Positions 17,280 to 17,708 of a DNA stretch of 18,601 nt are shown here, piece by piece. The DNA lies in IMG/VR virus record IMGVR_UViG_2711768044_000003. The stretch is one strand, 5' to 3'. The notes under the pieces were generated by a model, which worked only from the letters and a program-made list of their open reading frames with translations, made no database searches and was not told the origin of the DNA. The stretch is from a virus (lineage: Duplodnaviria > Heunggongvirae > Uroviricota > Caudoviricetes). The number at the start of each line of letters is the position of its first letter. Within the stretch, counting starts at the first letter, position 1. The position numbers and the translations under genes were made by a program.

Positions 17280-17708
17280 ATGTATTGCCGTGGTTTGCCA
17301 GTTCTTGTTTTGATATTCGCCTGCCTGGCAGCAGGCTGCACAAAAGATGTATCAACAAATTATCATGATAGTGCGCCATATCACGCAGGTGAATTAACAA
17401 AGGTTAAGAATGTTAATCCATCTGAAAGTACTGCTGATGTTAGTGAAGACATTCGTCATTATGCCGGTCAAATCAAAAAAGCCATTGAAGAACAGTTCAG
17501 GGAACCGGGTAAGTATTCCGGGAAAGTGTGTTCACTGAGAATGAATATGGCTCCGAATGGTCTTCTGTTGCAGGTTAAAAGAGAAGGTGGAGACCCCGAT
17601 TTATGTCGTGAAGCGATGAATGCGGTGAAGCATGCTGATATACCAGCACCGCCGTCTCCGGAAGTATATAAAGTATTTCACAATGGAGTGCTGGATTTTA
17701 AACCGTGA
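17280..17708 (+). CDS. Lipoprotein with TolA C-terminal domain (domain III) homology
   Basis: 142-aa ORF. Signal peptide with lipobox LAAGC, Thr at +2. C-terminal ~85 aa (YAGQIKKAIEEQFREPGKYSGKVCSLRMNMAPNGLLLQVKREGGDPDLCREAMNAVKHADIPAPPSPEVYKVFHNGVLDFKP) aligns nearly colinearly with the recalled C-terminus of E. coli TolA (YAGQIKSAIESKF...GKTCTLRIKLAPDGMLLDIKPEGGDPALCQAAL...IPKPPSQAVYEVFKNAPLDFKP). Confidence 0.8.
   Translation: MYCRGLPVLVLIFACLAAGCTKDVSTNYHDSAPYHAGELTKVKNVNPSESTADVSEDIRHYAGQIKKAIEEQFREPGKYSGKVCSLRMNMAPNGLLLQVKREGGDPDLCREAMNAVKHADIPAPPSPEVYKVFHNGVLDFKP

Follow-up and report, generated by a model that had tools for sequence, protein, structure and literature searches.

The tolA3 gene and its product

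We analysed an 18,601-nucleotide stretch of DNA from a virus of the class Caudoviricetes (IMG/VR record IMGVR_UViG_2711768044_000003), called the window below, which represents the left half of a lambdoid prophage. The subject of this report is a gene in it that we name tolA3, located at positions 17280..17708 of the + strand, stop codon included. It has an ATG start with a Shine-Dalgarno-like GGGGA motif 7-8 nucleotides on its 5' side, and encodes a predicted lipoprotein of 142 amino acids (aa) that is a stand-alone copy of domain III of the host envelope protein TolA. A first-pass annotation, made by a model from the letters of the sequence, had placed the open reading frame (ORF) at these positions, and we confirmed its strand, start and length. 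We will argue that the product may serve the lysogen as a decoy of the C-terminal hub of TolA.

The N-terminus of the protein reads MYCRGLPVLVLIFACLAAGC followed by TKD, with a single positive charge, a hydrophobic core of 13 residues and the pair G19-C20. We assign positions 17280..17339 (+) from the sequence to a signal peptide (aa 1-19) and the lipobox Cys20 (codon 17337-17339), which makes Thr21 the +2 residue. The lipobox, L-A-A-G-C, is slightly non-consensus with Ala at -3 instead of Leu/Val/Ile, a deviation that is tolerated; membership was judged by the pattern [LVI][ASTVI][GAS]C plus a conserved cysteine, and we judged tolA3 to belong. Cys20 is one of just five invariant columns in an alignment of 49 diverse homologues, and Asp at +2, the Lol avoidance signal, is found in none of the 52 lipobox-bearing relatives. 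From the lipobox and the +2 rules, the product is predicted to be lipidated and sorted to the outer membrane, and these observations bear out the lipoprotein signal peptide (LAAGC, Thr at +2) proposed in the first-pass annotation.

The predicted lipid anchor is connected to the domain by a disordered tether of ~30 residues (aa 21-50, positions 17340..17429, +), where the predicted local distance difference test score (pLDDT) is below 50 for residues 18-49. The rest of the protein (aa 51-142, positions 17430..17705, +) has the TolA domain III fold according to the PDB sequence match, the predicted model and the Foldseek search described next.

Homology to TolA domain III

The Pfam family PF06519 matches residues 51-140 of the product with E=1.8e-23 and 83 bits (cut-off 25). 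A search of the PDB retrieved E. coli TolA domain III (3qdp, 1s62, 1tol) with E ~6e-29, residues 52-142 aligning without a gap onto TolA 331-421, and both proteins end in LDFKP; the identity to TolA 334-421 is 58%. The AlphaFold model, made from 13 homologues, has a pLDDT of ~90 over residues 50-142. When it was searched with Foldseek the top PDB matches were all TolA III, with a template-modelling (TM) score of 0.96 and a root-mean-square deviation (rmsd) of 0.6 A for 2x9a_B. The similarity to TolA III is far beyond chance. Besides PF06519, the only significant family match is PHROG 5772 (function unknown), which covers residues 7-142 over profile positions 3-128 of 128 (E=1.9e-51), and no sequence relation to Cor or Llp, two phage-encoded lipoproteins, was seen. 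The nearly colinear C-terminal match down to LDFKP that the first-pass annotation had reported is in fact gap-free, and the profile search, structure prediction and superposition that it had proposed as checks all agree with it. It was also right that the membrane anchor and the helical domain II of TolA are absent, the domain being preceded only by the signal peptide and the short linker.

Residue numbers of tolA3 are converted to those of TolA by adding 279. C84 and C109 are then the counterparts of TolA C363 and C388, which form the disulfide of TolA, the C-terminal LDFKP corresponds to the beta3 strand at TolA 417-421, and LLQVKR is the equivalent of the ColA box, 375-LLDIKP-380. Within the phage family no variation is seen at L138, D139 and F140 of beta3, and almost none at K141. 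The same invariance holds across this family for Y61, A62, Q64, I69, E70 and F133, and I65 and K66 are retained in the window protein; these eight positions map to TolA Y340, A341, Q343, I344, K345, I348, E349 and F412. In TolA itself, g3p-N1, colicin N and the TolB N-terminus each dock by adding a strand to beta3 through the backbone of D418/K420, with a contribution from helix alpha2, and colicin A docks at the opposite edge of the domain, on 375-LLDIKP-380 (PMC4339652, PMC7391070). Judged from the alignments and the model, tolA3 retains the TolA fold, the disulfide cysteines and the beta3/alpha2 docking surface.

TonB enters the picture as well. The TonB C-terminal family PF13103 is weakly similar to tolA3 (E=2e-4), with TonB family scores at or under their cut-offs, and TonB C-terminal domains also appear among the Foldseek fold matches of the model. 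A TolA/TonB-type fold could be used as a scaffold for some other target, either as a plug of an outer-membrane receptor on its periplasmic side, in the way Cor and Llp act on FhuA, or by binding TonB-box-like strands, and might in this way exclude tailed phages or group-B colicins instead of invaders that depend on Tol. The architecture, a small outer-membrane lipoprotein of a temperate phage, resembles that of Cor and Llp. In addition a paralogue described below, TolA3b, has its beta3 strand changed to GFDMRG, which suggests that other specificities exist in the family and makes the scaffold use possible especially for TolA3b. We nevertheless consider it improbable, as no protein beyond its own family is closer to the window protein than E. 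coli TolA III, with 58% identity, and as it conserves the docking residues specific to TolA; the TonB scores and the missing relation to Cor and Llp also speak against it. A decoy of TolA III remains the reading that we prefer for tolA3.

Naming in databases

In every genome hit, RefSeq carries the name given by its annotation pipeline PGAP, 'tolA: cell envelope integrity protein TolA'. The model TIGR02794 scores 79.6 bits on tolA3 against a cut-off of 59.45, and its match is confined to the last ~106 model positions; the misnaming thus arises because this cut-off can be cleared by the C-terminal domain alone. PRK09510, with 111.6 against a cut-off of 213, is not reached. We regard it as practically certain that the gene is not a genuine TolA, in spite of the TIGR02794 score and the uniform PGAP name. 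The protein has the PF06519 domain III but no transmembrane domain I for coupling to TolQ-TolR, and the disordered linker stands where TolA has its long domain II, a segment of about 230 residues that in gamma-proteobacteria is helical. It is 142 aa long as compared with 421 aa for TolA, and its gene is part of the late region of a prophage, not of ybgC-tolQRA-tolB-pal-cpoB. The host genomes also retain their chromosomal tolA, which to our knowledge is present in essentially every E. coli genome.

The gene is neither rare nor unseen, being covered by PHROG 5772 and routinely mislabelled 'tolA' in RefSeq. About 900 RefSeq E. coli genomes carry an extra gene with the label 'tolA' that is not TolA, which may mislead pangenome and essentiality analyses.

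The stx cargo slot

tolA3 belongs to the late operon headed by the Q antiterminator gene (13277..14107, +; PF03589 E=8e-52, 276 aa). Its left neighbours are an N6/N4 DNA methylase gene (15749..16807, +; PF01555 E=1.3e-45), with 92% DNA identity to the copy upstream of stx2 in Stx2a phages, and a pair of tRNA genes (16848..17007, +), tRNA-Met/Ile(CAT) at 16848-16923 and tRNA-Arg(TCG) at 16931-17007, a left flank that is common to Stx2 phages. A megablast search with window positions 15600-18601 matched 295 phage records, mostly Stx2 phages. Compared with the Stx2a phage Stx2_95, positions 15226-17012 are 92% identical, spanning the pR' region, the methylase and the two tRNAs; the identity ends at 17013 and returns at 17889, which is 86 bp past the stx2B stop. 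These BLAST breakpoints show that the cargo cassette at 17013..17888 (+) exactly replaces argO-stx2A-stx2B. The first-pass annotation had put the gene after the methylase-tRNA cluster, in the slot where Stx phages carry stxAB, and the alignment makes this literally correct. The stx cargo slot hence swaps toxin genes for cargo with a predicted role in the envelope, between flanks that are 92% identical.

One part of that description could not be confirmed. The gene had been placed before the late terminator. The terminator-like hairpins that would serve pR' lie upstream of it (14297, 15262 and 15586), and a strong hairpin found downstream, at 18312-18329, forms the terminator at the 3' end of the second of two STnc100-like small RNA (sRNA) elements. 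The region 3' of pR' in lambdoid phages is a known insertion site for morons (PMC4104026). The G+C content is 43% for tolA3 and 33.5% for the 185-bp spacer upstream of it, as against 51-52% for Q and the methylase, so that tolA3 has two of the marks of a moron, a known cargo slot and a composition unlike the flanks.

The edges of the cassette have features of their own. At the left edge, on the site of argO in Stx phages, there is a third, atypical tRNA-like element (17021..17091, +; Rfam tRNA 42.8 bits), for which PGAP calls tRNA-Gly in strain M3 and ARAGORN makes no call; its anticodon loop, CTTCCTG, reads Gly-UCC. The right flank consists of the two tandem STnc100-like elements at 17878-18082 and 18133-18341 (+; Rfam RF02076, 118.9 and 98.5 bits). 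Stx2_95 has a single STnc100 element, 75 bp 3' of stx2B, and in loci of allele type A, defined below, the element sits upstream of tolA3. Its recurrence after stx2B and by tolA3 suggests that STnc100 marks the edge of the cargo slot.

Other genes of the window include an integrase (1-1314, -), an S24 repressor (7949-8695, -), a cro-like gene (8800, +), and helicase and primase genes (9792-12420). We also made several observations on the surroundings. In the early-left operon an SPFH/Band-7 protein (4578-5405, -; PF01145 E=9e-31; PHROG 200 'lipoprotein') represents another envelope-directed accessory gene. The ORFs at 14222-14788 (-) and 14743-15153 (-) overlap, and a single PHROG 7003 protein (a profile of 309 positions) is matched by the two together, its C-terminal half by the first and its N-terminal half by the second; the pair at 14222-15153 (-) is one frameshifted gene, antisense to the late operon and lying between Q and the Stx2-type pR' region. 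Positions 15226-15600 have 92% identity to the pR'/tR' region found directly after Q in Stx2a phages, and here this stretch is located 1.1 kb downstream of a different Q type (PF03589, 276 aa). Beyond the second STnc100-like element, a strong terminator on the minus strand (18341-18399, hairpin 18372-18348) has a weak RybB-like match (E=0.24). The element could be a candidate anti-sRNA of the AsxR/AgvB type, which has been reported 3' of pR', antisense to stx2 (PMC4104026).

Distribution, alleles and selection

We surveyed 5426 complete E. coli genomes by megablast at the DNA level and found relatives of tolA3 in 889-895 of them (~16%, about one in six). A scan of IMG/VR with the alignment A2 of close relatives gave 61 viral contigs with a relative; 60 of the 61 contain the complete locus, and all of these have intact 142-codon ORFs. 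The curated phage collection has tolA3 only in the temperate phage mEp460. Three allele types (A, B and C) occur, with 65-75% identity to the window protein. Type A starts with MGFRSAS, has the lipobox IIIGC and is present in 782 genomes at a nucleotide identity of at least 99%, and type B starts with MYCRAVPV, its lipobox being LTTGC. The window allele, type C, is rare. Of the complete genomes, just those of the mouse strains M1 and M3 have it at the DNA level, and 38 contigs encode exactly this protein. Further lipobox variants are LTAGC in another allele and LTGC in a more distant relative.

The gene order around tolA3 is constant: Q comes first, in some loci followed by a methylase, then the tRNAs and tolA3, in some loci a DUF6645/nanS-p-like gene, and last holin and lysozyme. 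At the loci examined the gene has the same position on Qin-like, Rac-like, mEp460-like and Stx-like backbones. Between allele types, at dS of 0.2-0.8, the domain has a ratio of nonsynonymous to synonymous substitution rates (dN/dS) of 0.24-0.35; the tether, the most variable and least constrained segment, has 0.3-0.74. These values indicate purifying selection on the coding sequence, strongest on the domain.

In type A loci a second, divergent TolA-III lipoprotein paralogue, which we call TolA3b, is encoded directly 3' of tolA3. It has 124 aa, the lipobox FVAGC, a Cys-rich linker, a PF06519 match of E=1e-14 and 28% identity to the type A tolA3 product, and its last strand is altered to ...FQKSGFDMRG. 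Copies were located at 20702-21076 of locus L073, 6601-6975 of L027, 6512-6907 of L002 and 14702-15076 of L074. The window has no TolA3b, its tblastn matches there being only cross-matches to tolA3 itself. The 'hypothetical protein' annotated downstream of tolA in mEp460 is not a spurious ORF over STnc100, as its translation and Pfam match reveal the TolA-III lipoprotein paralogue. The type A pair of tolA3 and TolA3b genes is intact in Qin-like and Rac-like remnants that are disrupted by insertion sequences (IS), in ECC-1470 and, especially, strain D9. The D9 locus, L074 (NZ_CP010152.1 2013440-2041969), is a Rac-like remnant with IS421, IS66, IS3 and truncated structural genes.

Some copies are not intact. 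In several alleles among the relatives P0020-P0030 a frameshift in the PAPPSPEVY region puts other residues in place of the final ~18 and so of the docking strand beta3, and these alleles are either decaying copies or assembly errors. One might ask on this account whether tolA3 is a passenger without current function, a captured tolA fragment that is decaying in prophages. The frameshifted alleles without the C-terminal strand come from several assemblies, and the window allele is rare, with strains M1 and M3 and some dozens of contigs as its carriers. We find this highly improbable in view of the 60 intact copies on viral contigs, the low dN/dS of the domain at dS of 0.2-0.5, the spread of allele A at nearly identical sequence, and a lipoprotein signal that was acquired and whose cysteine is invariant in the 49 homologues. 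A crude neighbour-joining (NJ) tree also places the protein among short lipoproteins, not with E. coli TolA.

The wider family and its origin

An exhaustive phmmer search of 1.84 billion representatives yielded 319 matches at E <=1e-3, of which the best 149 were classified. About 56 of these 149 are clusters of short lipoproteins, 105-160 aa in length, in which a lipobox is combined with TolA III at the C-terminus; about 38 have the membrane anchor of a real TolA, and a few (P0104, P0173 and P0215) have a type I signal peptide in place of the lipobox. The short lipoproteins for which an organism is named come from Enterobacterales (Serratia, Kosakonia, Rahnella and Dryocola). One relative, P0035, is encoded directly after a Q antiterminator on a phage-like contig, and PHROG 5772 is also matched by TolA3b, by P0035 and by the chromosomal P0105.

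The window protein thus falls among short lipoproteins in the crude NJ tree. For 36 of these lipoproteins the nearest neighbour is again a lipoprotein, and for 20 it is a TolA. The lipoprotein form may have arisen either once or several times. We rejected a recent capture of E. coli tolA, considering the 58% amino acid identity and this grouping. The survey points the same way: as megablast matched just 895 of the 5426 genomes, the chromosomal tolA must fall under its limit of ~80% identity.

A proposed decoy of the Tol hub

The reading that we prefer is that tolA3 encodes a non-energised periplasmic decoy, or dominant-negative, of the TolA C-terminal hub from which the lysogen benefits, and we would call its chances about even. 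The product would be exported by Sec, lipidated at Cys20 and delivered to the outer membrane by Lol, where the flexible tether would suspend a complete TolA domain III just beneath the membrane. The domain would then be placed in the layer of TolB-Pal and of the periplasmic porin mouths, the space into which group-A colicins first send their translocation domains and filamentous phages the N1 domain of g3p. It might bind the partners of TolA III, namely the TolB N-terminus, g3p-N1, colicin N and probably colicins A and K. Since the product has no link to TolQR and the proton-motive force, we propose that a colicin or g3p would be captured but not pulled in. Such an unproductive capture would protect the lysogen, giving it tolerance to bacteriocins that depend on Tol and resistance to Ff-type phages. 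A high dose might also titrate TolB and loosen the outer membrane, leading to leakiness and vesicles.

The conserved docking residues, the absence of Asp at +2, the purifying selection and the gene kept intact in IS-riddled remnants all support the decoy. The commonest allele adds to this a possible transcription unit: type A has a promoter-like site, TTGAGC-18-TATAAT (10/12 matches), 30 nucleotides 5' of the ATG of tolA3, and a terminator follows the TolA3b gene, a layout like that of a moron. The slot 3' of pR', the low G+C content, the promoter and terminator of type A and the presence of a paralogue are as expected for a diversifying defence cargo.

Several observations weigh against the decoy. 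The box to which colicin A binds is half conserved (LLQVKR versus LLDIKP), and the PADLOC models of defence systems gave no match to tolA3. The affinity between TolA and TolB is low, with a dissociation constant (Kd) of 40-200 uM (PMC7391070), so that titration may need a high copy number, and in bile a cell with the leakiness of a tol mutant would pay a high price. The relatives P0105, P0095 and P0093 have ordinary chromosomal neighbourhoods not associated with phages, which hints at a more general cellular role. As to expression, we found no promoter site with at least 9/12 matches upstream of tolA3 in the window, and the three terminator-like hairpins given above stand between Q and the gene; by its location past these late-operon hairpins and for want of such a promoter, the window allele may be silent in the lysogen. 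An upstream alignment of the alleles gave only a -10-like box, GATAAT at 17247..17252 (+), which is common to types B and C within an otherwise diverged spacer and, with no -35, is a weak candidate promoter. Even the type A promoter match is not statistically exceptional, 9 sites being found where 5.6 are expected.

These signals could also be read in favour of a role late in the lytic cycle. A Q-dependent burst of outer-membrane-anchored TolA III might titrate TolB, so that Pal would be sequestered and the outer membrane would detach, aiding the spanins or the release of vesicles and periplasm. tolA3 is co-oriented with the late operon and lies just 5' of holin and lysozyme at every locus examined, stx2 in the same slot is expressed mainly on induction, and no convincing promoter precedes the window allele, which is separated from Q by terminator-like sites. 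The leakage caused by periplasmic TolAIII (PMC6195910) would fit as well. On the other hand, the commonest allele has its promoter-like site and a terminator after the gene pair, the pair is kept in remnants whose lysis or structural regions are broken by IS elements, lambdoid phages already possess full holin-endolysin-spanin sets, and the chromosomal relatives have no lysis genes nearby. We think that such a lytic helper is fairly unlikely, and we continue with the decoy in the lysogen.

More tentatively, we speculate that outer-membrane-anchored TolA-III lipoproteins might form an unrecognised and widespread class of 'anti-Tol' decoys, a defence by receptor mimicry that would intercept Tol-dependent bacteriocins and filamentous phages on the periplasmic side of the outer membrane. 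In E. coli they would be a swappable cargo of the stx slot, with alleles and tandem paralogues produced by an arms race with colicins and g3p, and some of them would have been domesticated onto the chromosome in other Enterobacterales. This wider proposal is possible, but we hold it to be somewhat less probable than not.

If the decoy model is true, roughly one in six complete E. coli genomes would have a prophage-borne protection against group-A colicins and Ff-type phages that is unaccounted for in colicin ecology, in the hosts used for phage display, in bacteriocin therapeutics and in models of gut competition. The protein would then offer a natural dominant-negative of the Tol-Pal hub, tuned by evolution and useful as a tool for the study of TolA-TolB force transduction and vesicle formation. 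In any case the finding of tolA3 yields a sharply testable hypothesis.

Comparison with known systems

A full-text literature search returned no paper on a TolA-III lipoprotein that is encoded by a phage or stands alone, the mentions of TolA in the candidate papers being to chromosomal tolA or in reference lists, and a term search of a 2025 evolutionary survey of TolA/TonB based on PF06519 gave nothing that points to such lipoprotein forms. The literature search agrees with the remark in the first-pass annotation that no prophage protein of this type had been characterised.

The nearest known counterpart is domain III of E. coli TolA (about 331-421; PDB 1TOL, 1S62, 3QDP/3QDR and 2X9A), with which tolA3 shares the fold, the gap-free identity of 58%, the cysteines, LDFKP and the alpha2 residues. 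TolA has an inner-membrane anchor, domain II, a coupling to TolQR and the proton-motive force, and a place in the tol-pal operon, none of which is found for tolA3. The product is also predicted to sit by its lipid on the outer membrane, opposite to the membrane of TolA, and the ColA box differs.

It has been reported that TolAIII targeted to the periplasm by a signal sequence makes tolA+ E. coli release periplasmic proteins (PMC6195910, citing Levengood-Freyermuth 1993 and Wan & Baneyx 1998). This engineered form, a fusion to the RBP signal sequence, is like tolA3 a free, exported domain III in a tolA+ cell, and its effect is dominant-negative and leaky; by analogy it is a direct functional precedent for the proposed decoy mechanism. 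The 1993 construct is also said to have given tolerance to colicins E1, E2, E3 and A. The engineered domain is artificial, soluble, overexpressed and identical to that of the host TolA, whereas tolA3 is predicted to be lipid-anchored, has 58% identity and is evolutionarily maintained.

Cor (of phi80, N15 and mEp167) and Llp (of T5) are superinfection-exclusion lipoproteins of phages that reside in the inner leaflet of the outer membrane and bind FhuA. They have in common with tolA3 that they are small phage-encoded outer-membrane lipoproteins, as predicted in the case of tolA3, and that entry is or would be neutralised from the periplasmic side. Cor and Llp bind a receptor, while tolA3 would mimic an energy-transducing hub of the host and capture the invader or TolB, and there is no relation in sequence or fold. 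The g3p of filamentous phages, when expressed in the host, confers tolerance to group-A colicins and immunity to Ff superinfection. It would share with tolA3 the pathway that is blocked, the interaction with TolA III. As g3p occupies the TolA of the host and tolA3 would occupy the invaders, the two would follow mirror-image strategies.

The cargo that tolA3 replaces, stx2AB at the pR' moron site, uses the same slot, from the tRNA cluster to the STnc100/nanS-p region, with flanks 92% identical to those of Stx2a phages. The product of stx2AB is aimed at eukaryotic cells, and that of tolA3 is unrelated to it and would be aimed at the bacterial envelope. The domain, the theme of lipoprotein morons and the dominant-negative effect are each already known singly. 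What is new is their combination: a natural and diversifying copy of the host Tol hub, predicted to be anchored in the outer membrane, in the slot of stx.

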